A stretch of 31,107 bases of DNA from a virus (Duplodnaviria > Heunggongvirae > Uroviricota > Caudoviricetes), in IMG/VR virus record IMGVR_UViG_2713896798_000014. The stretch is one strand, 5' to 3'. Below are positions 14,027 to 26,831 of the stretch, piece by piece. Numbering within the stretch: the stretch's first letter is position 1; every line of letters begins with the position of its first letter. The position numbers and the translations under genes were made by a program. Below the pieces are notes generated by a model that saw only the letters and a program-made list of their open reading frames with translations, did not search any database and was not told where the DNA came from.

Positions 14027-14398
14027 ATGCGTGATATTCAAATGGTTCTTGAACGTTGGGGGGCATGGGTGGCAAATAATCACGAGGATGTGGAATGGTC
14101 ATCTGTTGCTGCAGGTTTTAAGGGATTAATTCCTTCGAAAGTAAAATCCCGCCCGCAATGTAGCGATGACGATGGCCTGATCATTAGCTCTGCGATGACA
14201 GTTCTTAAGAAAAAGGAACCGTATCAATACGAATTACTGGAAATGTATTATGTGTATGGGGTTACATTACGGGCGTTGGGGGTAAAACTGGGGATATCAC
14301 TTAATCAGGTTGTTATCAGACTGCAGAAAGCTGAAGGGTTTATTGACGGTTGTCTGGCAATGTTGGGGGTATCTTTAGAAATTGATTGTTACATATAG
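14027..14398 (+). CDS. Q: late-gene antiterminator Q-like protein
   Basis: Position immediately upstream of the late region; GGAGA 6 nt upstream of ATG 14027; family assignment from recollection of Q-like sequences. Confidence 0.6.
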   Translation: MRDIQMVLERWGAWVANNHEDVEWSSVAAGFKGLIPSKVKSRPQCSDDDGLIISSAMTVLKKKEPYQYELLEMYYVYGVTLRALGVKLGISLNQVVIRLQKAEGFIDGCLAMLGVSLEIDCYI

Positions 14399-14431
14399 TA
14401 ATAAATTCAATCAAAGTAAATAATCATATTT

Positions 14432-14470
14432 TATAATAACCTCCTGATGATACCTGTTCATTGGGAGGTT
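14432..14470 (+). promoter_or_regulatory. consensus -10 (TATAAT) plus hairpin sequestering the downstream Shine-Dalgarno
   Basis: TATAAT at 14432-14437, 34 nt after the Q stop; perfect 7-bp inverted repeat AACCTCC (14438-14444)/GGAGGTT (14464-14470) whose 3' arm overlaps the GGGAGG ribosome-binding site. Confidence 0.4.
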
Positions 14471-14473
14471 ATT

Positions 14474-15091
14474 ATGGATAAAAATGTAGAGCATGTATTA
14501 GTTGATGCAATTGAAAATAAGCAATCTTTAACAGTCGTTTACTTAGGAGGGAGCCAGCCCGGAACATTAAGGAATATTTCTCCGATTAGTATAAATGGGG
14601 ATAAATTGCGGGCAAGATGCCATAGTTCTGGAGCAGTAAAGGTTTTCAATCTTGGGAAAATACAGTTACCCAGTGACTCCTGCGCGGTATCTATGCACTA
14701 TGGAGATTTAGAAGTTAAAGCTTATGAGACGATGCAGAGCGTAAATGACAACTTTCATGCCCTTTATCCTGAAGGACGATGGGGTGTTGATTTTAATGAG
14801 CATCGCTTTGCTTTATTTGATTTTTTTAAAAACGGGAAACGAAAAAAAACGGCATTTATGGCAATTGAGTTCAGGGAAAGAGATGAAGAGAAAATAATAA
14901 CAGGTGTAACAATTGATATTGGTATATCTGGAACAGTGATTTCTGAGAAGTCCCGAATCCCAAAAAGACGACCATGGGTAGTGGTTGGTCCCGAACACGG
15001 AGAATACAGTACTTATTCAACTTTGGACAAGGCTGCTACAGCGTTTTTTGAGAGGCTTTCGTTGATAGCATCCGGCCTGGAAGATAATTGA
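14474..15091 (+). CDS. hypothetical protein with N-terminal WYL-like domain (cargo gene)
   Basis: 205 aa; N-terminal LTVVYLGGSQPGTLRNISPISINGDKLRARCHSSGAVKVFNLGKI fits the WYL pattern as I recall it; visibly AT-rich; start at 14474 (GGGAGG + 5 nt) preferred over track ATG 14447. Confidence 0.55.
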   Translation: MDKNVEHVLVDAIENKQSLTVVYLGGSQPGTLRNISPISINGDKLRARCHSSGAVKVFNLGKIQLPSDSCAVSMHYGDLEVKAYETMQSVNDNFHALYPEGRWGVDFNEHRFALFDFFKNGKRKKTAFMAIEFRERDEEKIITGVTIDIGISGTVISEKSRIPKRRPWVVVGPEHGEYSTYSTLDKAATAFFERLSLIASGLEDN

Positions 15092-15224
15092 TTTTATGTT
15101 TGGTATTCAGAGTTCTCCGTGCTTAAGAAAGTCAAGATTCTAAAAATACTGAATGAGCTACTTGTGTTATAACAAAAATGCTATTAGTGTGTTAAGAGTG
15201 GTTACTTCGCCACACAACTTAAAC

Positions 15225-15245
15225 CCGCCGCTGAGCGGTTTTTTT
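15225..15245 (+). terminator. candidate weak rho-independent terminator
   Basis: Short GC stem (CCGC/GCGG) followed by T7 run. Confidence 0.35.
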
Positions 15246-15369
15246 GTACCTGTAAACCTGGTGCAGTACAGTAAACACGCTGGTGGTCGTGAATACTGGC
15301 TTTTTATCTTGCTGGCTTTTTAGACAAGAGTTATTGGTATGTCACGTTAACCGGAAAGGGTAAAAAGAC

Positions 15370-15567
15370 ATGCTGAAACAGCAGGATATGACAGAAACCG
15401 CCAGAGTTGTGTTTGATGAATTAAGCGTTACCGAACCGGCGACAGTCGGGGAGATTGCGCAGAATACTTACCTTTCACGCGAACGCTGCCAGTTAATACT
15501 GACCCAGCTTGTTATGGCGGGTCTGGCAGACTATCAGTGCGGTTGTTACAGACGCCTTCAGTCCTGA
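15370..15567 (+). CDS. small putative DNA-binding protein (winged-helix-like)
   Basis: 65 aa; segment ATVGEIAQNTYLSRERCQLILTQLVMAGL looks HTH-like; followed directly by a strong terminator. Confidence 0.45.
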   Translation: MLKQQDMTETARVVFDELSVTEPATVGEIAQNTYLSRERCQLILTQLVMAGLADYQCGCYRRLQS

Positions 15568-15580
15568 AGGCTTTTTATTT
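15554..15580 (+). terminator. rho-independent terminator
   Basis: 7-bp stem GCCTTCA/TGAAGGC with 4-nt loop, then TTTTTATTT; overlaps the stop codon. Confidence 0.7.
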
Positions 15581-15635
15581 GTGGTGAATGGGCGGCTGGT
15601 GGGGGGGCGACACCTGTCAGTCCTTTGCTTATGTG

Positions 15636-15666
15636 TTGATGATAATTTACCTTTTGGGGCTATAAT
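15636..15666 (+). promoter_or_regulatory. candidate promoter for the AraC-family gene
   Basis: Perfect TATAAT at 15661-15666, 36 nt before ATG 15702; weak -35 TTGATG with a long spacer; a G7 run lies just upstream (15601-15607). Confidence 0.35.
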
Positions 15667-15701
15667 TGAGCTAACCAATTGCTAATGAAAGTAAAATTAT
15701 A

Positions 15702-16415
15702 ATGGCTGTTGTCTGTTCAGTTATCATGGTTTGCTCCCCAATTAATATTTTTCTTGAAAAGGATACGTTGTCACTTAAGCCAGGCTCAGTTGTTCTGGCC
15801 ACCAAATGCATCAGGGAGCTTTTCCTTATGCATTATGGCAAAGTTAAAATTGTCGATATAAGCGAATCCGTCGTAAGTCAATATCTGGAAAGTCAGCATA
15901 AGCTGACGAGGACTCGTCTGACTGACATTCCGCTTTACCTGTTGCTGGAACCCAACAATCCTGCGTTGGCTGCGGCTTTAATTACCAGCCAGGGATTTTC
16001 CGGAGAGGCCACGGATATGTTTCTTATGATGGCCTGCCTGTCTCTGTTTGAAACAGATGAACGGATGTCATTGTTTTTAAGTGGATGTTTATCCAGCATA
16101 AGTGCCAAAGTCAGGGCGATAATTCAGACAGATATATCAGCAAGCTGGACGCTTGGTGCGATTGCTCTACAGTTGCATATGAGTGAGAGTTTGTTAAAGA
16201 CAAAACTGAAAAATGAAGGGGGCATGTTCAGTCGCTTGTTGCTGGAAGAGCGGATGCGTGTTGCTGTAAATATGTTATGTTCCCGGCATGGATATGGACA
16301 GGCTATAGCAGAAAAATGCGGTTATTCAAGCAGGTCCTACTTTATTTCTGTATTTCACCGCTATTATGGCTTCCCGCCAGACAGATATGTATCCAGGCAA
16401 GGGCTTGATTATTGA
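15702..16415 (+). CDS. AraC/XylS-family transcriptional regulator
   Basis: C-terminal double HTH (WTLGAIALQLHMSESLLKTKLK...GYSSRSYFISVFHRYYGFPPDRY); AT-rich; start uncertain (15702 or 15828). Confidence 0.75.
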   Translation: MAVVCSVIMVCSPINIFLEKDTLSLKPGSVVLATKCIRELFLMHYGKVKIVDISESVVSQYLESQHKLTRTRLTDIPLYLLLEPNNPALAAALITSQGFSGEATDMFLMMACLSLFETDERMSLFLSGCLSSISAKVRAIIQTDISASWTLGAIALQLHMSESLLKTKLKNEGGMFSRLLLEERMRVAVNMLCSRHGYGQAIAEKCGYSSRSYFISVFHRYYGFPPDRYVSRQGLDY

Positions 16416-16443
16416 TTTTCATCTGATTATTATTTTTTGGCTC

Positions 16444-16519
16444 GGCCCTTTAGCTCAGTGGTGAGAGCGAGCGACTCATAATCGCCAGGTCGCTGGTTCA
16501 AATCCAGCAAGGGCCACCA
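16444..16519 (+). tRNA. tRNA with CAU anticodon (Ile2/Met-type, ileZ-like)
   Basis: 76 nt; acceptor stem GGCCCTT/AAGGGCC, anticodon loop CTCATAA, T-loop GGTTCAAATCC, 3' CCA. Confidence 0.8.
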
Positions 16520-16528
16520 TATTACATA

Positions 16529-16605
16529 CCGCTATTAGCTCATCGGGACAGAGCGCCAGCCTTCGAAGCTGGCTGCGCGGGGTTCAAGTCCCCGATGGCG
16601 GTCCA
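16529..16605 (+). tRNA. tRNA-Arg (anticodon UCG)
   Basis: 77 nt; anticodon stem CCAGC/GCTGG with loop CTTCGAA; T-loop GGTTCAAGTCC; 3' CCA. Confidence 0.8.
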
Positions 16606-16618
16606 TTATCAGCATCAT

Positions 16619-16695
16619 GCGTTGTTAGCTCAGTCGGACAGAGCAATTGCCTTCTAAGCAATCGGTCAGTGGTTAGACTCCACTACAACGCGCCA
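16619..16695 (+). tRNA. tRNA-Arg (anticodon UCU)
   Basis: 77 nt; anticodon stem ATTGC/GCAAT with loop CTTCTAA; 3' CCA. Confidence 0.8.
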
Positions 16696-16708
16696 CACTT
16701 ATTTTCCA

Positions 16709-16734
16709 GGCTCGCTTCGGCGGGCCTTTTTTGT
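16709..16734 (+). terminator. rho-independent terminator after the tRNA cluster
   Basis: GGCTCGC-TTCG-GCGGGCC hairpin followed by TTTTTTGT. Confidence 0.65.
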
Positions 16735-16864
16735 ATCTGCGCCACGCCCGGCGCATATCAACCACAGAGCCTTTCGGGGGTGAGCTTACGGAGTGGTCAG
16801 TGTGACTTTCTCTGTGGGCAGATCGCTCCCGGGCGTTGGCTCACCCACCCAAAGGAACGTCACG

Positions 16865-17296
16865 ATGTTTGGAATCTTCAAAAAGAAAACCCGCAGAGCG
16901 GCAGCGGAAATTAAAAAGTTTGAGAAACGCGATCTGGCACAGGCGGTGATTAACGCTGCATACCTGGTGGCCTATGCAGATGGTGAATGCGAGGCATCCG
17001 AGAAAGCGAAGATCGAACAGGTCTTACGTAATCAGCCTGCGTTGTCTGCGTTTACCTCGGAAATTAATGCGATTAGCGCAACCATTATCGGTCAGCTGGA
17101 TACCAATTTTAAAATTGGTCGTCGTGCCGCGTTACGCGAGATTGAGGATGTGAAACACGATACGCGTGAAGCGGAAGATGTGCTGGATGTGGCGGTGGCC
17201 ATTGCGGAGGCAGACGGCGAAATTGAGCCGGAAGAGCGCAAGGTGCTGGAAGAGATTGCCGGTGTTCTGGGTCTTCGTCTGGAGAATCACCTGTGA
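16865..17296 (+). CDS. TerB-like domain protein
   Basis: Two repeats of the ...A.ADGE.E..E pattern (AAYLVAYADGECEASEKAKIEQVL; VAVAIAEADGEIEPEERKVLEEI); start at ATG 16865 with AGGAA upstream. Confidence 0.65.
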   Translation: MFGIFKKKTRRAAAEIKKFEKRDLAQAVINAAYLVAYADGECEASEKAKIEQVLRNQPALSAFTSEINAISATIIGQLDTNFKIGRRAALREIEDVKHDTREAEDVLDVAVAIAEADGEIEPEERKVLEEIAGVLGLRLENHL

Positions 17297-17460
17297 CGGT
17301 AAAACTGCGCCTGGCTGTGGCTGCACTCCTGCTGTTTCTGGTGGTGATGGTGGATCTCACCAGCAGAATCATGTCGGTGCTGGCGGATGGGGTGCTGGTC
17401 TGCGGCATTGTGGTATTGCTGTGGCCGGTGATAAAAAGAAACAGCCTGCATAATGCTTGA
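17293..17460 (+). CDS. small predicted membrane protein (55 aa, two hydrophobic segments)
   Basis: GTG start overlapping the TerB-like stop (GTGA); hand translation VTVKLRLAVAALLLFLVVMVDL...VLVCGIVVLLWPVIKRN; below track cutoff. Confidence 0.4.
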   Translation: MTVKLRLAVAALLLFLVVMVDLTSRIMSVLADGVLVCGIVVLLWPVIKRNSLHNA

Positions 17461-17772
17461 TTTTTTTATTTGCTGTTTATTAAAAACACTTCTGCATGGT
17501 GAATCCCCCTGTGCGGAGGGGCGATCAGCAACCAGGTATATGGGATAATCGCGGATTCAGGTGCTGATACTGAATTCACCGGGAGGCACCCGGCACCATG
17601 CTTTGCCACAAAAGTGTTGTTTCTGTTTTTCTCAAACTATCATCATTATCCCTTTATTTCCGGCTGCGCATGGCGTGGCTTTTTTTACGACCAGCCACTG
17701 GCAGATGGCCATCCTGTAATTTGATTCCGGTTCCGGCTTTTTAACTCTGTTCCTGTACACGGGAGAAATTCG

Positions 17773-19623
17773 ATGTCGATTAAACATTATGATGTTGTCA
17801 GGGCGGCGTCGCCGTCAGACCTTGCGGAAAAGCTGACACATAAACTGAAAGAGGGCTGGCAGCCGTTTGGTAGTCCGGTGGCCATAACCCCTTATACCCT
17901 GATGCAGGCGATTGCAGCAGAAGGTGATGTGGTGGTCAGTGGTGCAACTGAGCCGGAGTGGTACTACGTCATCGTACTGGCCGGGCAGTCCAATGCCATG
18001 GCTTACGGTGAAGGGCTTCCGCTGCCGGATTCATACGATGCTCCGGATCCGCGCATTAAACAGCTGGCGCGCCGCAGTACAGTGACGCCGGGTGGGGCTG
18101 CCTGCAGATATAACGATATTATTCCGGCCGACCATTGCCTGCATGATGTGCAGGATATGAGTACGCTGAATCATCCGAAGGCAGACCTGAGCAAAGGGCA
18201 GTACGGCTGTGTCGGCCAGGGGTTACATATTGCCAAAAAACTGCTCCCGTATATCCCGAATAACGCGGGGATCCTGCTGGTACCATGCTGTCGTGGTGGT
18301 TCGGCATTCACCCAGGGCGCGGAGGGGACATTCAGTGCGGACACGGGGGCCAGCCAGGATTCGGCGCGCTGGGGTGTGGGTAAACCGTTATATCAGGACC
18401 TGATTGCGCGCACCAAAGCTGCATTACAGAAGAACCCGAAAAATGTGTTGCTGGCGGTGTGCTGGATGCAGGGAGAGTTTGACATGAGCGCCGCCACCCA
18501 CGCACAGCAACCTGCGCTGTTTACAGCCATGCTGAAGCAGTTTCGTGCTGACCTCACTGTGTTTAACGCGCAGTGTCATGGTGGCAGTGCTGCAGATGTG
18601 CCGTGGATTTGTGGTGACACGACGTATTACTGGAAAAATACATACGCTACCCAGTACGACACCGTGTACGGCGGGTATAAAAACAGGGAGAGTGAGGGCG
18701 TTTATTTTGTGCCCTTCATGACAGACGGTAACGGCGTTAATACCGCCACTAACGCGCCGGCAGAAGATCCGGATATTCCGGCATCAGGATATTACGGTGC
18801 GGCATCGAGAACGAATGGAAACCAGGTATCATCAAACCGCCCGACACATTTCAGTTCATGGGCGCGCAGGAGCATTATTCCGGATCGTCTGGCAACCGCT
18901 ATTCTGAACGCAGCCGGGCGCACCTCAGCCTTCATCAGTGGTAAGGCACCGGAAATCAAACCCTCGCCCGGCGGCAACACGCCATCGGGTCCGTCTGCAG
19001 ATACGTCCGTTCGCACAATCTCCCTGCTGCCGGCAGCCGGAGAGGCTGCTGCGCAGGGCTGGAGCATTAAGGATGGCGGAATTCAGTTGTCAGATGGTGT
19101 ATTTAAGATCACCAAGCAGAGCAATAAAACCTGGTCCCTGACGCATCCGGTGGATGACGCAATTACCCTGCTGACACAGGGTGGCAGACTGAACTGTAAG
19201 TTCCGCCTGTCAGGCGCACTGACCAACAATCAGTTCGGGCTGGGGATTTATCTGTATACGGATGCTCCCGTTCCTGATGGTGTGGCGATGACGGGTACCG
19301 GTAATCCGTTCCTGATGTCGTACTTCACTCAGACCACTGACGGCAGAGTGAATCTGATGCATCACAGGAAAGCCGGAAACACGAAGCTGGGGGAGTTCGG
19401 CGATTACGGTAACGACTGGCAGACGCTGGAGCTGGTGTTCACCGCCGGCAGTGCCACGGTTACTCCGAAACTGAATGGAGTGGCTGGCCCGGCATTCCAG
19501 GTTATAAAAGACAGTCTGAAAGTGGGGCTGAATGCGCTGACGTTAACTGACATCACAAAAGGTGCCACGTACGGCGTTGAGATAGAAAGTCTGGTGCTGG
19601 AGATAAATACACTGGCAGCATAA
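17773..19623 (+). CDS. nanS: NanS-p-like sialate O-acetylesterase (DUF1737 N-terminus + SGNH/SASA-like domain)
   Basis: N-terminus MSIKHYDVVRAASPSDLAEKLTHKLKEGWQPFGSPV and esterase block VIVLAGQSNAMAYGE; GGGAGA 6 nt upstream; occupies the position of Stx-phage yjhS/nanS-p. Confidence 0.75.
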   Translation: MSIKHYDVVRAASPSDLAEKLTHKLKEGWQPFGSPVAITPYTLMQAIAAEGDVVVSGATEPEWYYVIVLAGQSNAMAYGEGLPLPDSYDAPDPRIKQLARRSTVTPGGAACRYNDIIPADHCLHDVQDMSTLNHPKADLSKGQYGCVGQGLHIAKKLLPYIPNNAGILLVPCCRGGSAFTQGAEGTFSADTGASQDSARWGVGKPLYQDLIARTKAALQKNPKNVLLAVCWMQGEFDMSAATHAQQPALFTAMLKQFRADLTVFNAQCHGGSAADVPWICGDTTYYWKNTYATQYDTVYGGYKNRESEGVYFVPFMTDGNGVNTATNAPAEDPDIPASGYYGAASRTNGNQVSSNRPTHFSSWARRSIIPDRLATAILNAAGRTSAFISGKAPEIKPSPGGNTPSGPSADTSVRTISLLPAAGEAAAQGWSIKDGGIQLSDGVFKITKQSNKTWSLTHPVDDAITLLTQGGRLNCKFRLSGALTNNQFGLGIYLYTDAPVPDGVAMTGTGNPFLMSYFTQTTDGRVNLMHHRKAGNTKLGEFGDYGNDWQTLELVFTAGSATVTPKLNGVAGPAFQVIKDSLKVGLNALTLTDITKGATYGVEIESLVLEINTLAA

Positions 19624-19632
19624 TAAAAAAAC

Positions 19633-19667
19633 AGCCAGTACTGACTTTCGTCGGAGAAGTACTGGCT
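19633..19667 (-). terminator. hairpin oriented as a minus-strand terminator
   Basis: Perfect 10-bp stem AGCCAGTACT/AGTACTGGCT; T-run follows only on the minus strand. Confidence 0.4.
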
Positions 19668-19841
19668 AAGAAGGATAGTTGTGTTTCACATCATTTTCAG
19701 ACTGGACGGTACATTTTCTGACAGATAGTGACGGATGTTGTCAAGATATTGTGTCATTTATAACCTGAATCAGGGGAGGCCGGAATGTTATCTGGCATTT
19801 TTAGCAGAGCCTGAATGCCATAATCACGGCTCCCGGCGTTG

Positions 19842-19872
19842 GCCGCCAGTGGGTGACACTGGCGGCTTTTTT
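19842..19872 (+). terminator. strong rho-independent terminator immediately upstream of the holin gene (tR'-like)
   Basis: Perfect 10-bp stem GCCGCCAGTG/CACTGGCGGC, 5-nt loop, then TTTTTTGTTTTT. Confidence 0.75.
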
Positions 19873-19922
19873 GTTTTTCTTTACTTTCATTTTCTGTCGG
19901 CGGTGACGGAGACATACATCAG

Positions 19923-20129
19923 ATGGAAAAAATCACAACAGGTGTGTCATACACCACGTCAGCGGTGGGGACGGGATACTGGTTACTGCAGCTGCTGGAC
20001 AAAGTCTCTCCGTCCCAGTGGGTGGCGATAGGTGTGCTGGGGAGTCTGCTGTTTGGCCTGTTGACGTATCTTACTAACCTGTATTTCAAAATCAGAGAGG
20101 ACCGTCGTAAGGCGGCGCGGGGAGAGTAA
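19923..20129 (+). CDS. S: class II holin (phage 21 S-type pinholin)
   Basis: 68 aa; ...[47 protein letters not shown] closely resembles S21 as recalled. Confidence 0.8.
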
Positions 20130-20133
20130 AGCG

Positions 20134-20478
20134 ATGAAGAAAAAATACGAACTGGTTGTTAAAGGGATAAATAATTACCCGGATAAGATTACTGTTAGTG
20201 TGGCACTGGAAATTGGTGGGTATCCGTCACTGTTGTTGCCAGATGTGGCGATTAGTCTTGACCGTACTGAAGGAGCCACGCTGGAGTTTTACGAAGCTGA
20301 GGCGAAAAAGCAGGCGAAGCAGTTTTTCATGGATGTTGCTGCCGGGTTATGTGAAGGGGATGGTCCGTTGCCGGAAAAGCGGCCCATCATTTTAGAGGCG
20401 CAGGATGTGTTGATAACCTACAGAGGAAAACTACCGGGAATAATTACTGGTTCTCTGAAGACTCCACCGCTGGCCTGA
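20134..20478 (+). CDS. hypothetical protein inserted between holin and endolysin
   Basis: 114 aa; ribosome-binding site GGGGAGAG inside the holin 3' end; no family recognised. Confidence 0.6.
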   Translation: MKKKYELVVKGINNYPDKITVSVALEIGGYPSLLLPDVAISLDRTEGATLEFYEAEAKKQAKQFFMDVAAGLCEGDGPLPEKRPIILEAQDVLITYRGKLPGIITGSLKTPPLA

Positions 20479-20528
20479 AGACTTAACATATCCAGGGATT
20501 TGAAATCGATAAATCCTGATAAATATCC

Positions 20529-21062
20529 ATGAACGCAAAAATCAGATACGGCCTGTCGGCTGCCGTTCTGGCGCTGATTGGTGCAGGGGCGTCTGCGCCT
20601 GAAATCCTCGACCAGTTTCTGGATGAAAAGGAAGGTAACCACACCACGGCATACCGTGATGGTGCGGGTATCTGGACCATCTGCCGAGGTGCCATCCTGG
20701 TGGATGGTAAACCTGTCGTTCCGGGCATGAAGTTGTCGAAGGAAAAATGCGACCGGGTTAACGCCATTGAGCGTGATAAGGCGCTGGCATGGGTGGAGAA
20801 AAACATCAAAGTGCCGCTGACCGAACCCCAGAAAGCGGGGATCGCGTCATTCTGTCCGTACAACATTGGTCCCGGTAAGTGTTTCCCGTCGACGTTTTAC
20901 AGACGAATTAATGCAGGTGATCGAAAAGGTGCCTGCGAAGCGATTCGCTGGTGGATTAAGGACGGTGGCAGAGACTGCCGTATTCGTTCAAACAACTGTT
21001 ACGGTCAGGTATCCCGTCGTGACCAGGAGAGCGCGCTGGCGTGCTGGGGAATCGACAGATAA
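20529..21062 (+). CDS. R: SAR-type endolysin (lysozyme)
   Basis: N-terminal signal-anchor-release-like hydrophobic segment GLSAAVLALIGAGASA followed by lysozyme-like core (EGNHTTAYRDGAGIWTICRG). Confidence 0.8.
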   Translation: MNAKIRYGLSAAVLALIGAGASAPEILDQFLDEKEGNHTTAYRDGAGIWTICRGAILVDGKPVVPGMKLSKEKCDRVNAIERDKALAWVEKNIKVPLTEPQKAGIASFCPYNIGPGKCFPSTFYRRINAGDRKGACEAIRWWIKDGGRDCRIRSNNCYGQVSRRDQESALACWGIDR

Positions 21063-21332
21063 GAAGAATATTTTGCTGAAAAATGAGGTTTGCTTACATG
21101 GACGGATAACACGAAATCCTGCAAATTTGCAAAATGTAAGTGAATAAAGTCAAAACAGTTGTTTAACACTCAGGCACCGTAATGATGCCTTTGTCATTTC
21201 TGCGCATCTCACGCGCATCTCACAACACAGAACCTTTCAGGATGACCCTTGAGGATACCGGTTTGGCTGTCGGTGCCTTTCTGTGGACTGGATTCCTGTG
21301 AGACAAGGTTCATCACTAAAAGGAAATAACCG

Positions 21333-21902
21333 ATGAATATGATGGCCGTGCCGTTTCACGGCAACTCTCTTTATGTAGTTAACCATAATGGCGAACCATA
21401 CGTTCCCATGAAACCTGTCGTTGCGGGGATGGGGCTGGCCTGGCAATCACAGTTGGCTAAGTTAAGACAGCGTTTTGCGTCAACTATAACGGAAATCGTT
21501 ATGGTTGCTGAGGATGGGAAACAACGCAATATGGTGTCCATGCCACTTCGAAAACTTGCCGGCTGGCTACAAACCATTAATCCCAACAAAGTAAAACCCG
21601 AAATCCGCGATAAGGTCATCCGGTATCAGGAAGAGTGCGACGATGTTCTTTACGAGTACTGGACGAAGGGTTTTGTCGTTAATCCCCGTAAAATGAGCGT
21701 GATGGAAGAACTCAACCAGGCTTGTGCTGACATGAAACGGGATAAAAATATTGCCAGTGTGTTTGCTACCGGGCTGAATGAGTGGAAACAGGTTAAAGCC
21801 GCGCATGTATCAAAAATCCGTACGCTGGTAAATGAAGCGAATATGCTGATTGATTTTGTCCTGGCTGATACAGGCAAAGGGAAAATAACAAAGGCGGATT
21901 GA
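21333..21902 (+). CDS. antirepressor-like phage protein (family tentative)
   Basis: N-terminus VPFHGNSLYVVNHNGEPYVPMKPVVAGMGLAW resembles antirepressor N-terminal domains; located between endolysin and Rz as in some Stx phages. Confidence 0.45.
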   Translation: MNMMAVPFHGNSLYVVNHNGEPYVPMKPVVAGMGLAWQSQLAKLRQRFASTITEIVMVAEDGKQRNMVSMPLRKLAGWLQTINPNKVKPEIRDKVIRYQEECDDVLYEYWTKGFVVNPRKMSVMEELNQACADMKRDKNIASVFATGLNEWKQVKAAHVSKIRTLVNEANMLIDFVLADTGKGKITKAD

Positions 21903-22048
21903 TGGGGTGGCTAATGATATCAGATAAACTCATAACGCTGGTGAAGAGCCTCTGTGTACTTGTCGGCATTTCATTTTTAGTCATGCTGGTTGCCATTTTC
22001 TTTTCCACCGCCTGGCGAGTCCTGACGTTATCGGGACTGGTGGGGTGA
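21902..22048 (+). CDS. possible small membrane protein (48 aa)
   Basis: ATG overlaps upstream stop; hydrophobic core [18 protein letters not shown]; below track cutoff. Confidence 0.3.
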
Positions 22049-22055
22049 AAGAGAG

Positions 22056-22523
22056 ATGAACCGTGTTCTGTGTGTGGTGATTATTGTCCTGGCGGTTGGC
22101 TGTGGTGCGCTGTGGCTGGCAACAAACCATTACCGTGACAACGCGCTCACCTACAAAGCGCAGCGCGATAAAAAAGCCAGAGAGCTGGAACAGGCGAATG
22201 CAACCATTACTGATATGCAGCAGCGCCAGCGTGATGTTGCTGCACTTGATGCCAGATACTCGAGGGAATTAGCCGATGCGAGAGCTGAAAATGAAACTCT
22301 GCGCGCTGATGTTGCCGCTGGTCGTAAGCGCCTGCGCATCAACGCCAACTGTCCCGGTACCGTGCGTGAAGCCACCGGCACCGCCCGCGTGGATAATGCA
22401 ACCGGCCCCCAACTGGCAGACACCGTTACACGGGATTATTTCACCCTCAGAGAGCGGCTGATGACGATGCAGAAGCAACTGGAAGGGGCACAGGACTATA
22501 TCCGCACTCAGTGCCTGAACTAA
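22056..22523 (+). CDS. Rz: Rz i-spanin
   Basis: N-terminal transmembrane segment then coiled-coil-like Ala/Arg/Glu-rich periplasmic domain; Rz1 embedded in +1 frame. Confidence 0.8.
22276..22461 (+). CDS. Rz1: Rz1 o-spanin lipoprotein (embedded in Rz)
   Basis: Lipobox LVVSAC after a short signal peptide, proline-rich mature region; fully nested within Rz. Confidence 0.75.
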
Positions 22524-22715
22524 GTTTTGCTGATGCGCCGTATCGTCGCTGTATTCCCTCATTAACAGAGACCGCAGCCCGACAGGGAGACTCCTCTGCG
22601 CGAGTGTGCGGGGATAATCAAAAACGATACACACCGGGGTTTACCGCGTTAACGGAGCGCGGCGTTGTCCCCTCATAGTCGCCTGTCCGGTACGATGGTG
22701 GAAGAAACCGAACGT

Positions 22716-22916
22716 TCATTTCTCGTTATTTGTCATGCTGGCCGTACGCAGATGCGTTGCATCTGTTGCCAGCCTTCTCCTGCAGGCTTCAATAACCCAC
22801 GCTGAAAAGTTACTGGACCCTTTATGCTCAAGGGCGATGTTGATCTGTTCAATCATGTGATTGGGGAAACGGATATTGCGGGTTGTGGTTCTGCGGGTCC
22901 GGTTTTTCGATGACAT
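22716..22916 (-). CDS. small ribbon-helix-helix-like protein (DUF3950/YlcI-like)
   Basis: Start at ATG 22916 (AGGAA + 6 nt); MSSKNRTRRTTTRNIRFPNHMIEQINIALEHKGSSNFSAWVIEACRRRL. Confidence 0.5.
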   Translation of the reverse strand: MSSKNRTRRTTTRNIRFPNHMIEQINIALEHKGSSNFSAWVIEACRRRLATDATHLRTASMTNNEK

Positions 22917-22957
22917 ATTTATTTCCTTTACTGATTGCCATATGACGGGGATTTTAC

Positions 22958-23323
22958 ATGGCTGAGCTTCGTACACTCCAGAGCAGAATCAAAACTCTGA
23001 ACACCCGACGGGTGAATATTCTGAAGGGGGAACAGCGTCGTGTCAGTGGCAGTGCACGTGTTTCCCTCAAGCGTCATATCTGGCTGAGGGATGCCGGACA
23101 GTGCTGTCTCTGTGGTCGTGTGGTTGACCTCTGTGACAGTGAACTCGATCACCGAATTGCACTTCAGTTCGGTGGTGGTAATGAGGAGACGAATCTCTGG
23201 ACGCTCTGTACCGAATGCCATCGACAAAAGTCTGCTCGTGAAGCGGCGGGTGGTATGCCGGACCCGACGCTGCCGGAGGTGTCCGGAGGTCATGGCAGGG
23301 CAGACGATATCATCGGACTGTGA
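22958..23323 (+). CDS. HNH endonuclease
   Basis: C..C...H...C.C.H pattern (CCLCGRVVDLCDSELDHRIALQFGGGNEETNLWTLCTECHRQK). Confidence 0.8.
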   Translation: MAELRTLQSRIKTLNTRRVNILKGEQRRVSGSARVSLKRHIWLRDAGQCCLCGRVVDLCDSELDHRIALQFGGGNEETNLWTLCTECHRQKSAREAAGGMPDPTLPEVSGGHGRADDIIGL

Positions 23324-23331
23324 CCCGCCCC

Positions 23332-23383
23332 GGGGGGGGGATCATCCGGCGAAAAAAACGATCGCTCCGGACACCGCCCCCCC
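23332..23383. repeat. homopolymer tracts: G9 (23332-23340), A7 (23352-23358), C7 (23377-23383)
   Basis: Counted directly in the sequence, immediately after the HNH stop. Confidence 0.9.
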
Positions 23384-23569
23384 TCTCACGCAGAGAAAAA
23401 ATTCCCGTTTCAGGGCAGTTAACATGTTAACTGGCTGTCCGGGCATTTTTGCGGTTTTTATCTTTATTATTCAGTTTGTTGCGTGGGTAACCGGCTCATT
23501 TAAACCGTCTGGTCTGTTTCCTCCGGCTCTACAAAAATAATGTCCATCATTTTTAATGGACACTATCGT

Positions 23570-24217
23570 ATGAAACACCGGACCTGGATCACTGAAGCTT
23601 TACGTCTTCACTTTGAAGAACATTTACCCCGGGTTGTGGCCGGGCGTCGCCTGAGTGTACCAAAATCAACAGTTTGTAGTATGTTCGTGCGCTTTCGGAG
23701 AGCTGGCCTTTCGTGGCCTTTGCCCGCAGGCATGTCGGAGCAGGAACTTGATGCCTGCCTTTACGGACAATTTTCCACGGTACCAGTCGTACGTCCTGAA
23801 AGCACCGTTATATCCGAAGCCCCCGTGGTAAAAAAACGTCCCCGGCGGCCCAACTTCCCTTATGAGTTTAAAATCGCCTTAGTGGAGCAGTCACTACAGC
23901 CCGGAGCCTGTGTGGCGCAGATCGCCCGGGAAAACGGAATCAACGATAACCTGCTCTTCAACTGGCGCCATCAATACCGGAAAGGTGGCCTGCTGCCTTC
24001 CGGAAAAAATATGCCGGCACTGCTTCCCGTGACGTTAACGCCGGAGCCGGATAATAAAATCCCGGCCCCCGCACAGGAACCAGAGCAGATAAATACACCG
24101 TCCGACAGTCTGTGTTGTGAGCTGGTTCTGCCGGCCGGAACTCTCAGGCTTAAAGGTAAACTGACGCCGGCGTTATTACAGACACTTATCCGCGAAATAA
24201 AAGGGAGCAGCCACTGA
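23570..24217 (+). CDS. IS66-family accessory protein (orf1/TnpA-like, HTH)
   Basis: HTH segment ...CVAQIARENGINDNLLFNWRHQYRKG; start uncertain (23540 or 23570). Confidence 0.6.
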   Translation: MKHRTWITEALRLHFEEHLPRVVAGRRLSVPKSTVCSMFVRFRRAGLSWPLPAGMSEQELDACLYGQFSTVPVVRPESTVISEAPVVKKRPRRPNFPYEFKIALVEQSLQPGACVAQIARENGINDNLLFNWRHQYRKGGLLPSGKNMPALLPVTLTPEPDNKIPAPAQEPEQINTPSDSLCCELVLPAGTLRLKGKLTPALLQTLIREIKGSSH

Positions 24218-24564
24218 TGATATCTCTCCCTGCAGGTTCGCGTATCTGGCTGGTTGCAGGTATCACCGATATGCGAAATGGCTTTAACGGCCTGGCATCA
24301 AAAGTTCAGAACGTCCTGAAGGATGACCCGTTCTCCGGACACCTGTTCATCTTCCGCGGACGCCGGGGTGACCAGATAAAAGTGTTGTGGGCTGACAGTG
24401 ACGGACTGTGCCTCTTCACCAAACGCCTGGAGCGGGGCCGCTTCGTCTGGCCAGTCACCCGTGACGGCAAGGTGCACCTTACTCCGGCTCAGTTATCCAT
24501 GCTTCTTGAAGGTATCAACTGGAAGCACCCGAAACGAACGGAACGCGCTGGAATCCGCATATAA
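24217..24564 (+). CDS. IS66 Orf2 (TnpB-like) protein
   Basis: 115 aa; MISLPAGSRIWLVAGITDMRNGFNGLA...HLFIFRGRRGDQIKVLWAD typical of IS66 Orf2; ATGA coupling. Confidence 0.8.
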   Translation: MISLPAGSRIWLVAGITDMRNGFNGLASKVQNVLKDDPFSGHLFIFRGRRGDQIKVLWADSDGLCLFTKRLERGRFVWPVTRDGKVHLTPAQLSMLLEGINWKHPKRTERAGIRI

Positions 24565-24583
24565 CCCGTTGTAAAGTGAGGAT

Positions 24584-26155
24584 ATGGACACCTCACTTGC
24601 TCATGAGAACGCCCGCCTGCGGGCACTGTTGCAGACGCAACAGGACACCATCCGCCAGATGGCTGAATACAACCGCCTGCTCTCACAGCGGGTGGCGGCT
24701 TATGCTTCCGAAATCAACCGGCTGAAGGCGCTGGTTGCGAAACTGCAACGTATGCAGTTCGGTAAAAGCTCAGAAAAACTTCGTGCAAAAACCGAACGGC
24801 AGATACAGGAAGCACAGGAGCGAATCAGCGCACTTCAGGAAGAAATGGCGGAAACGCTGGGTGAGCAATATGACCCGGTACTGCCATCCGCCCTGCGCCA
24901 GTCTTCAGCCCGTAAACCGTTACCGGCCTCACTTCCCCGTGAAACCCGGGTTATCCGGCCGGAAGAGGAATGCTGTCCTGCCTGTGGTGGTGAACTCAGT
25001 TCTCTGGGATGTGATGTGTCAGAGCAACTGGAGCTTATCAGCAGCGCCTTTAAGGTTATCGAAACACAACGTCCGAAACAGGCCTGTTGCCGGTGCGACC
25101 ATATCGTGCAGGCACCAGTACCTTCAAAACCCATTGCACGCAGTTATGCCGGAGCGGGGCTTCTGGCCCATGTTGTCACCGGGAAATATGCAGACCATCT
25201 GCCGTTATACCGCCAGTCAGAAATATACCGTCGTCAGGGAGTGGAGCTGAGCCGTGCCACACTGGGGCGCTGGACAGGTGCTGTTGCTGAACTGCTGGAG
25301 CCGCTGTATGACGTCCTGCGCCAGTATGTGCTGATGCCCGGTAAAGTCCATGCTGATGATATCCCCGTCCCGGTCCAGGAGCCGGGCAGCGGTAAAACCC
25401 GGACAGCCCGGCTGTGGGTCTACGTCCGTGATGACCGTAACGCCGGTTCACAGATGCCCCCGGCGGTCTGGTTCGCGTACAGTCCGGACCGGAAAGGTAT
25501 CCATCCACAAAATCACCTGGCCGGTTACAGCGGTGTGCTTCAGGCCGATGCTTACGGTGGTTACCGGGCGTTATACGAATCCGGCAGAATAACGGAAGCC
25601 GCGTGTATGGCTCATGCCCGGAGAAAAATCCACGATGTGCATGCAAGAGCGCCCACCTACATCACCACGGAAGCCCTGCAGCGTATCGGTGAACTGTATG
25701 CCATCGAGGCAGAGGTCCGGGGCTGTTCAGCAGAACAGCGTCTGGCGGCAAGAAAAGCCAGAGCCGCGCCACTGATGCAGTCACTGTATGACTGGATACA
25801 GCAACAGATGAAAACACTGTCGCGTCACTCAGATACGGCAAAAGCGTTCGCATACCTGCTGAAACAGTGGGATGCACTGAACGTGTACTGCAGTAATGGC
25901 TGGGTGGAAATCGACAACAACATCGCAGAGAACGCCTTACGGGGAGTGGCCGTAGGCCGGAAAAACTGGATGTTCGCGGGTTCCGACAGCGGTGGTGAAC
26001 ATGCGGCGGTGTTGTACTCGCTGATCGGCACATGCCGTCTGAACAATGTGGAGCCAGAAAAGTGGCTGCGTTACGTCATTGAACATATCCAGGACTGGCC
26101 GGCAAACCGGGTACGCGATCTGTTGCCCTGGAAAGTTGATCTGAGCTCTCAGTAA
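24584..26155 (+). CDS. IS66-family transposase (TnpC)
   Basis: 523 aa; N-terminal leucine-zipper-like region, CxxC...CxxC zinc motif, conserved core typical of IS66 transposases. Confidence 0.85.
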
Positions 26156-26192
26156 ATATCAATACGGTTCTGACGAGTCGCTTACTTTTGTT

Positions 26193-26831
26193 ATGCCATT
26201 TACATTTTATTTGTCGTCCGAGAATCAATTGTCAATACAAGATGTTGAAGTTTTGCAAAACGCAGCCAGAGCGAATGATACAGGGAATATTATAATAGGA
26301 GACAGGCAGCTTTCTGTTCGTTATCAGAGTGCTATGGACGCTTTTATTGTTAATCCTGTTCAGGGGGAGCTGTATTCAGGTCTTAATAATACTGCTTTGG
26401 ATGATGTTCTCAGTCTGGCTGACGTTATTGAGAGTCGGTTGAATGGAGGAAGCTCATTTCTTGATGTATTCGACAGATATATGATACAAACAATGCAAAC
26501 CATGATGAATGGTAATGAGGGCGATCTTGAATCGTTAGCGACTCGATTATCTTCAAGTGCTTTTTCGGTTTCTCCTGAGGATATATCCTGTATACCGGAG
26601 GCATTGCAGTGTCCGATTACATTGGCAATTCCAGAGCGTGGTGTTTTTCTTAGAAACTCCGAGGAATCCTCTGTGTGTAGTTTATATGATGAAAATGCTC
26701 TCTCTCGTATAATTAATGATGGGGGGCATCATCCATTAAGTAGGGAGCCAATAACAGCATCAATGATTGTAAAGTCTGAAGATTGTATTTTTGACGCCTC
26801 AAAGGGAAACTTCATTATAAAAGATAGTTAA
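26193..26831 (+). CDS. nleG: NleG-family type III effector (U-box E3 ligase-like)
   Basis: 212 aa, AT-rich; C-terminal U-box-like CPITLAIPERGVFLRN...HPLSREPIT; start only 8 nt from the IS66 right end. Confidence 0.7.
   Translation: MPFTFYLSSENQLSIQDVEVLQNAARANDTGNIIIGDRQLSVRYQSAMDAFIVNPVQGELYSGLNNTALDDVLSLADVIESRLNGGSSFLDVFDRYMIQTMQTMMNGNEGDLESLATRLSSSAFSVSPEDISCIPEALQCPITLAIPERGVFLRNSEESSVCSLYDENALSRIINDGGHHPLSREPITASMIVKSEDCIFDASKGNFIIKDS

Follow-up and report, generated by a model that had tools for sequence, protein, structure and literature searches.

A YdfR-family (DUF1327) gene between the holin and lysozyme genes of an Escherichia coli lambdoid prophage: probable late-operon cargo with a tentative link to RNase E

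Introduction

What is a small gene doing between the two genes that bring about lysis? The question is raised by a 31,107-nt stretch of DNA from a virus of the Caudoviricetes (IMG/VR record IMGVR_UViG_2713896798_000014; the window, as the whole of this stretch is called here), in which a 114-codon reading frame separates a holin gene from an endolysin gene. A preliminary description of this DNA regarded the frame as an uncharacterized peculiarity, stating that holin and endolysin genes are normally adjacent in cassettes of the phage 21 type, and proposed two ideas for its role, namely that it could modulate lysis timing or that it could be cargo riding on late transcription. The locus was therefore examined by homology, gene order, translation signals and structure prediction, and each of the possible roles was weighed against the evidence that bears on it.

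The lysis cassette and its reading frame

The holin gene (19923..20129, + strand) encodes a 68-aa protein of the phage 21 S family (class II, pinholin; PF04971, E = 8.8e-33), which is 81 % identical to K-12 EssQ. The endolysin gene R (20529..21062, + strand) encodes a 177-aa lysozyme (PF00959, E = 2.2e-24), 90 % identical to K-12 RrrQ, whose Gly/Ala-rich N-terminus (YGLSAAVLALIGAGASAP) and E-x8-D-x5-T motif fit a SAR endolysin. These assignments bear out the earlier placement of the frame, with a holin of the phage 21 type on one side and a SAR-type lysozyme on the other. On the 5' side of the holin gene, a consensus scan marked a terminator-like hairpin with a T-run (19841..19877, + strand), made of an 11-bp stem with 8 G-C pairs followed by TTTTTGTTTT, and late transcription must pass this predicted structure in order to reach the cassette.

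Phage 21 S is known to give a 71-aa antiholin product as well. The holin of the window is a single-start form, with no in-frame Met-Lys-Ser-Met start upstream (19905-19925), and so the 71-aa antiholin form cannot be made from it. The 207-nt holin gene is common to H-19B and the window, while the 216-nt form is found in K-12 EssQ and in PA11. A tie between ydfR, as the inserted gene is named below, and the single-start holin was considered and rejected, since K-12 and five of the examined loci (L015-L018 and L020 in our numbering) combine a 71-aa holin with ydfR.

Beyond the lysozyme gene lies an antirepressor-like gene (21333..21902, + strand; P22_AR_N, E = 1.4e-45, plus ORF11CD3) with a G+C content of 46 %, placed between lysozyme and Rz and found both in ydfR-bearing cassettes and in the ydfR-less one of PA11. 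A 49-aa hydrophobic ORF (21899-22048) also stands between lysozyme and Rz, and is annotated in both of the ydfR-bearing loci UTAK-6 and Stx1_EH1995. Together these two frames (21333-21902 and 21899-22048) are a second, independent cargo insert of the lysis cassette. The Rz i-spanin gene follows (22056..22523, + strand; PF03245, E = 1.3e-46), with an embedded 61-aa Rz1 o-spanin frame (22276-22461, + strand) that carries a lipobox-like LVVSAC.

The frame in question runs on the + strand from an ATG at 20134, 4 nt past the holin stop codon, to a TGA at 20476-20478. A Shine-Dalgarno sequence, GGGGAGAG (20120..20127, + strand), lies within the final holin codons, 6 nt ahead of this ATG, and its predicted pairing to the 3' end of 16S rRNA (-8.5 kcal/mol) surpasses that of every other cassette gene, in agreement with the ribosome-binding site that had been described in the holin 3' end. 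A consensus scan of the + strand found no promoter-like (sigma-70-like) site between 19500 and 22600, nor a convincing terminator 3' of the ORF. It follows that the ORF would be readable only within the late transcript, and the claim that it is transcribed together with the lysis genes held up. Without a promoter of its own, the ORF would depend on late-operon transcription, and ribosomes would be loaded at the Shine-Dalgarno sequence that lies in the 3' end of the holin gene, by which YdfR would be made along with the holin.

Pairwise comparisons with diverged homologues and alleles gave dN/dS values of 0.16-0.36, which imply purifying selection on the frame. Judged from these values, from the Pfam score and from the conserved slot given below, the frame 20134-20478 is a genuine gene and a chance ORF can be dismissed at the level of the sequence. 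A decaying remnant or chance frame from which no protein is made is hardly credible. The prophage does look truncated, with an IS66 element past the HNH gene, and selection on its lysis region is perhaps relaxed, but the frame keeps all of its 114 codons, matches copies from inducible Stx phages at 99-100 % identity, has a strong Shine-Dalgarno sequence and a confident Pfam match, and shows a dN/dS well below 1.

As regards the wider prophage, positions 14135-23486 of the window are 99.97 % identical to the UTAK-6 prophage, a match that ends just past the HNH gene. An IS66-family element (23540-26155; HTH_Tnp_1, TnpB_IS66 and DDE_Tnp_IS66 genes) comes next, with an NleG effector gene (26193-26831) 3' of it, followed by a tyrosine integrase gene on the - strand (28508-29605) and a dihydrouridine synthase gene (29694-30731). 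Genes for terminase, head and tail are missing 3' of the lysis cassette (window 23487-31107), and it is for this reason that the prophage looks truncated. In Stx phages the stx genes sit downstream of Q. The equivalent position in the window (15702-19623), past Q and three tRNA genes (16444-16695), is taken up by genes for an AraC-type HTH protein (15702-16415), a TerB-family protein (16793-17296) and a NanS-p-type SASA esterase (17773-19623), and stx genes are absent from this interval.

Family identity and distribution

The protein matches the Pfam family DUF1327 (PF07041) with 152.8 bits (E = 3.1e-45; gathering cut-off, 25 bits), residues 1-112 aligning with positions 1-92 of the 93 in the profile. 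Among the PHROGs it falls into phrog_406 (E = 1.2e-63), a group without known function, while NCBIfam contained no matching model. A 100 % identical copy is present in E. coli UTAK-6, where RefSeq names it 'YdfR family protein' (WP_047089938.1) and where the gene order is also identical (SASA esterase, holin, YdfR, lysozyme, antirepressor, Rz, HNH). On these matches the ORF is almost certainly an ordinary, already catalogued member of the YdfR/DUF1327 family. It is no peculiarity of the window either, the named gene occupying the same slot in H-19B, BP-4795, mEp460 and the K-12 Qin prophage. The possibility had also been raised that the ORF might prove to be a conserved, already characterised part of this type of cassette, and this has come half true, in that the gene is conserved and named.

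The gene is widespread. Of 5426 complete E. coli genomes, 2923 were matched by megablast with the 345-bp sequence, 1258 of them over at least 80 % of the query, and the matched copies carry the RefSeq annotation 'YdfR family protein'. A tblastn search found the protein in 101 phage records, with H-19B, BP-4795 and many Stx1a and Stx2c phages among the matches at 99.1 % protein identity. In the Stx1 phage H-19B (AF034975) the protein differs by one residue (S22T) and its position is identical; the record leaves the 400-bp gap between S and R unannotated, and no substantive difference from the window was seen. Copies of the H-19B kind are also found in BP-4795, YYZ-2008, Stx2 phage 86 and Stx1a/Stx2c phages.

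The position is as constant as the sequence. In the window and in 13 other E. coli lambdoid prophage loci the ORF fills the slot between a phage-21-type holin gene and the gene of the 177-aa lysozyme, and this slot is occupied in every examined E. coli locus that bears a homologue. The start 4 nt past the holin stop recurs in the window, UTAK-6, Stx1_EH1995, H-19B, mEp460, 2H10, PhiR42_1, Evi and six further genomic places. The family itself, as delimited by exhaustive HMM search, is small and unconnected to any annotated family, given that 1.84 billion representative proteins yielded 92 relatives only at E up to 0.001. Many of these relatives have 72-76 aa and consist of the core alone.

The namesake of the family is found in the Qin prophage of E. 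coli K-12, whose gene order, essQ-ydfR-rrrQ-rzpQ, is that of the window, with a holin and a lysozyme that are 81 % and 90 % identical, respectively. K-12 YdfR (b1555, P76160) belongs to the same Pfam family and starts 4 nt past the holin stop, and its residues 4-73 (70 residues) are 47 % identical to the N-terminal core of the window protein. Nevertheless, it has 103 aa and an unrelated C-terminal tail, and its stop codon overlaps the rrrQ start by 4 nt, whereas a gap of 50 nt separates the two genes in the window.

The protein: a conserved core and a variable tail

The ORF encodes a protein of 12.4 kDa with a pI of 5.5, whose highest 19-residue Kyte-Doolittle mean is 1.17, and the hydropathy scan revealed no transmembrane or signal segment. 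The product is, as predicted from its sequence, a small, soluble, mildly acidic cytoplasmic protein.

Two parts can be distinguished. The conserved DUF1327 core (codons 1-72; 20134..20349, + strand) is delimited by AlphaFold2, by residue conservation and by the alignment with K-12 YdfR, and is modelled as three antiparallel strands (5-14, 18-27 and 37/38-43) leading into a long helix (50-72/73). AlphaFold2 was run twice, on a shallow alignment and on a more diverse one, and gave concordant models with block-mean pLDDT values of 70-90 in the core. Homology and structure prediction, which the preliminary description had proposed as checks, thus returned a firm DUF1327 assignment and a beta-beta-beta-helix core. 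Within it, even when relatives of 24-45 % identity are aligned, Y53-E54 do not vary and Y5 is conserved to at least 90 %. Structural comparison gave a hit at noise level, and a search of solved structures by sequence likewise gave noise alone (E of 1.3 or worse).

The variable C-terminal tail (codons 73-114; 20350..20475, + strand; …PEKRPIILEAQDVLITYRGKLPGIITGSLKTPPLA) is defined by low pLDDT, by alternative tails and by alignment with longer alleles. Although it is conserved among E. coli alleles, it is modelled at low confidence, with pLDDT below 50 from residues 71/78 to 114. Its endings form a mosaic, …TPPLA in the window and …TPPKW or …TPPESQP in other alleles, and some alleles reach 176 or 183 aa through a coiled-coil extension of about 65 aa. 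Aligned with these long alleles, the window lacks about 480 bp at a deletion-type junction just past …TPP, a segment which comprises the coiled-coil extension and a convergent 86-aa ORF, and it was this junction that created the last two codons and the stop of the window ORF. Tails unrelated to that of the window are found in K-12 and mEp460, and 2H10 has an alternative one, while the protein of phage Evi is tail-less.

The N-terminal part exists in two deeply diverged allelic forms over codons 1-45 (20134-20268 compared with L007:2001-2135), …EIGGYPSLLLPDVA… and …QDKERFDGEIFDLD…, between which synonymous sites are saturated; in the same pair of genes, codons 75-112 are nearly identical. The pattern in the aligned sequences points to intragenic recombination.

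Relatives at other positions and the case for cargo

Outside the holin-lysozyme junction, the core is encoded without the tail in genes for 72-86 aa. In the Salmonella phages ES18 and Oslo the core gene lies between the lambda M-like and L-like tail genes, in one IMG/VR contig between I-like and J-like tail genes, and in a Pantoea prophage between a Q-like gene and an unrelated holin plus endolysin. ES18 gp24 reaches 30.7 bits against Pfam (cut-off 25) and is, like the ORF of the window, a late-strand cargo gene in a late operon, which the authors of the ES18 sequence annotated as 'possible moron; function unknown'. A profile built from E. coli sequences alone recovers the ES18, Oslo and IMG/VR-contig relatives at 33-39 bits (33.8 bits for ES18 gp24 by hmmsearch), and all three pass the Pfam cut-off; the Pantoea copy was assigned through the PHROGs comparison only (phrog_2735, E = 1e-13). 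Since the core sequence is kept across junctions as different as those between tail genes, between Q and S and between S and R, an action on the holin or the lysozyme is unlikely.

A convergent ORF of 86-100 aa lies directly 3' of every examined core-only DUF1327 gene, and the long E. coli alleles of L015 and L020 (176 aa) have one as well. The loci concerned include L011:3462-4014 (ES18 gp24/gp25), L012:2962-3514, L010:3001-3524, L009:2001-2540 (phage Evi), L014:3501-4042 (Pantoea) and L015:2501-3239. The convergent ORFs belong to three families (phrog_10490, phrog_25324 and phrog_2572), and homology between these families was considered and rejected (hhalign probability 0.05; blastp). They could reflect a two-gene module that recurs, or a spot favoured for insertion. 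The 114-aa allele of the window and K-12 ydfR lack the convergent partner, and tblastn and alignment found none of the partner families in the window.

In the E. coli cassettes, the gene is present or absent between homologous neighbours and deviates from them in composition (47 % G+C, where the holin gene has 53 % and the lysozyme gene 54.5 %), both of which are marks of a moron; a promoter and a terminator of its own, a further such mark, did not emerge from the consensus scan. Altogether, the ORF is likely to be dispensable cargo. Of the two ideas put forward at the outset, cargo riding on late transcription has thus turned out to be the better supported, by the G+C content, by the lack of a membrane segment and by the relatives elsewhere.

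What such cargo would do is a separate matter. One reading is that it serves conflict between phages or between phage and host (superinfection exclusion, defence or anti-defence), or the fitness of the lysogen, independently of RNase E. The moron-like distribution and composition would suit this role, and the convergent ORFs by the core-only and long alleles recall small two-gene accessory modules. Nevertheless, the partner has been lost from the window allele, the PADLOC-DB defence profiles gave no family at E up to 0.1, the structural hit stayed at noise level, and the lack of an own promoter in the window makes expression in the lysogen doubtful, so that we regard a conflict or fitness function of this kind as rather improbable.

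Comparison with cassettes that lack ydfR

The most informative comparison is with the 933W type, as in phage PA11, where a holin 94 % identical and a 177-aa lysozyme 96 % identical to those of the window are encoded by directly adjacent genes. The 933W/phage 21 arrangement shares with the window the holin family, the near-identical lysozyme, the antirepressor insert and Rz/Rz1; it differs in that there is no ydfR and that the lysozyme ATG is served by the Shine-Dalgarno sequence in the holin 3' end. In the alignment with PA11, homology spans the holin 3' end together with this sequence, the ATG of the ydfR slot coincides with the PA11 lysozyme start, and homology restarts at lysozyme codon 5-6, which indicates a clean insert or replacement. 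The comparison of related cassettes that had been called for thus found the insert in H-19B, BP-4795, mEp460 and K-12, and found it absent from PA11.

The same pair without the ORF occurs in PA11 and in many Stx2a phages. In the phage collection, which is dominated by series of Stx phages and whose record counts are descriptive only, 427 records have this holin type, 336 have a lysozyme at least 90 % identical and 101 have ydfR. The two genes are adjacent, as the preliminary description expected, in cassettes of the 933W type, and ydfR is present in 101 of the 427 records with the holin type. As the same holin and lysozyme lie side by side in ydfR-less phages, YdfR is probably outside the lysis machinery.

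This comparison weighs on the proposal that the ORF is a dedicated lysis regulator which, in the manner of an antiholin or a releasin, tunes when the pinholin is triggered or how the SAR endolysin is released and activated. The known antiholins and the releasin of Mu are membrane proteins, but the ORF protein has no transmembrane or signal segment. An antiholin would have a membrane segment or derive from the holin frame, and the ORF is separate from the holin gene and unrelated to it. Nor is it needed for, or always found with, its holin-endolysin pair, because a holin and a lysozyme of the same types function in 933W-type phages without ydfR. The core-only relatives, moreover, lie among tail genes or 5' of a holin and endolysin of a different type. 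In favour of a regulator are the invariant slot, 4 nt past the holin stop in all of the examined E. coli loci that carry the ORF, and the 68-aa single-start holin of the window, which lacks the start of the 71-aa antiholin and might leave room for another regulator; however, the presence of ydfR is independent of the single-start holin. Further support may be seen in the Keio ydfR mutant, which is among the hits of a CPRG screen for envelope permeability, where ydfR appears in the supplementary hit lists only and not in the main text (PMC3879167), but polar effects of the kan cassette on the downstream lysozyme gene rrrQ could account for this phenotype just as well. Nothing was found in support of a modulation of lysis timing, and a dedicated lysis regulator is, in our estimation, distinctly unlikely.

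A different consequence of the insertion concerns the lysozyme gene itself. The sequence GGGGAGAG, which precedes ydfR in the window, is the Shine-Dalgarno sequence of the lysozyme gene in 933W-type cassettes; with ydfR in place, the module takes it over and the lysozyme gene is left with a leader devoid of one. In the window this leader is 50 nt long, A+U-rich and SD-less (20479..20528, + strand), and here, as in mEp460 and 2H10, the predicted pairing to the anti-SD comes to +0.6 kcal/mol, compared with -8.5 kcal/mol in PA11. The motif TCCTGATAAATATCC-ATG is conserved in the leaders of these three cassettes; besides that of the window, the coordinates of the SD-less leader are L005:3027-3081 and L007:2853-2873. 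As read from these signals, the loss may lower or delay lysozyme synthesis.

It could even be argued that this effect in cis is the dominant one, the module altering the holin:lysozyme ratio by shifting the lysozyme gene about 395 nt away from a strong Shine-Dalgarno sequence, with the protein of minor importance. The SD-less leader of the three scored ydfR-bearing cassettes, the conservation of its TCCTGATAAATATCC-ATG and the 4-nt overlap of ydfR and rrrQ in K-12, which suggests translational coupling, would all be in line with this. Nevertheless, purifying selection acts on the coding frame (dN/dS 0.16-0.36), and the core domain is conserved as far as the Salmonella phages and Pantoea in unrelated positions, which argues that the protein itself is selected. 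A cis effect is, in addition, compatible with mobile cargo that encodes an active protein, and its dominance is very unlikely.

A lead to RNase E

For the function of the protein, one biochemical lead exists, and it comes from K-12. A bacterial two-hybrid screen with RNase G as bait turned up codons 1-72 of K-12 ydfR on three occasions, and this clone gave a stronger signal with RNase E constructs (PMC13232886, RNA Biol 2026). Full-length YdfR gave a two-hybrid signal with Rne 1-597 only, and Strep-YdfR co-eluted Rne 1-598-FLAG together with DNase-resistant nucleic acid; the co-purification was carried out without nuclease treatment, so that RNA may have bridged the two proteins (PMC13232886). 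Over-production of YdfR changed very few transcripts and left growth unaffected (PMC13232886). The authors placed YdfR among the proteins making contact with the RNase E catalytic half, a group that they compared with Srd of phage T4 (PMC13232886).

As cited in that paper, T4 Srd is a small cytoplasmic phage protein reported to contact RNase E in its N-terminal half and to stimulate the decay of host mRNA (PMC13232886). By this contact it would be a possible functional analogue of YdfR. The two differ in setting, since Srd is made early by a virulent phage and ydfR sits in the late operon of temperate phages.

The region mapped in K-12 (residues 1-72) corresponds to the conserved DUF1327 core. 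Binding to RNase E or RNA has been reported for K-12 YdfR only (PMC13232886), and its transfer to the window allele, by homology, would draw on 47 % identity over 70 residues, with a different tail, and on one study. It is consequently a tentative and somewhat doubtful suggestion, though the likeliest of the mechanisms considered, that the window protein binds RNase E or RNA, and to speak of a consequence for RNA decay is speculative.

The explanation which in our opinion best accounts for the locus, and which we hold to be about evenly poised between right and wrong, is that of a mobile YdfR/DUF1327 cargo gene of the late operon, with binding to RNase E or RNA ascribed to its product by homology. 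The gene would constitute a mobile accessory module of the moron type, inserted in the holin-lysozyme junction of E. coli lambdoid prophages; the beta-beta-beta-helix core of its product (72 residues) would dock late in infection on the catalytic, N-terminal half of host RNase E, on RNA or on both; and this binding could modulate RNA decay. Capture of the lysozyme Shine-Dalgarno sequence by the module would be a separate effect in cis. It must be said, though, that the strict holin-adjacent placement in E. coli would also be in keeping with a lysis-related role. [quoted passage not shown] Reasoning by analogy from the K-12 protein, we consider this extension possible in principle but unlikely.

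Implications

The gene that seemed peculiar to one prophage thus belongs to a named family, YdfR/DUF1327, which is found in more than half of the complete E. coli genomes. In fact, ydfR is among the commonest genes without an assigned function in the lysis regions of Shiga-toxin prophages, where it is co-transcribed with the genes of toxin release, and a first biochemical lead, RNase E, now exists for the family. Altered translation signals of the lysozyme gene could, in addition, feed into differences in the kinetics of lysis and toxin release between phages of the H-19B and 933W types. If the proposed role at the RNA level were true, proteins of the YdfR type might protect the long late transcript that carries stx and the lysis genes, and the small convergent ORFs could belong to the same RNA-level circuit.
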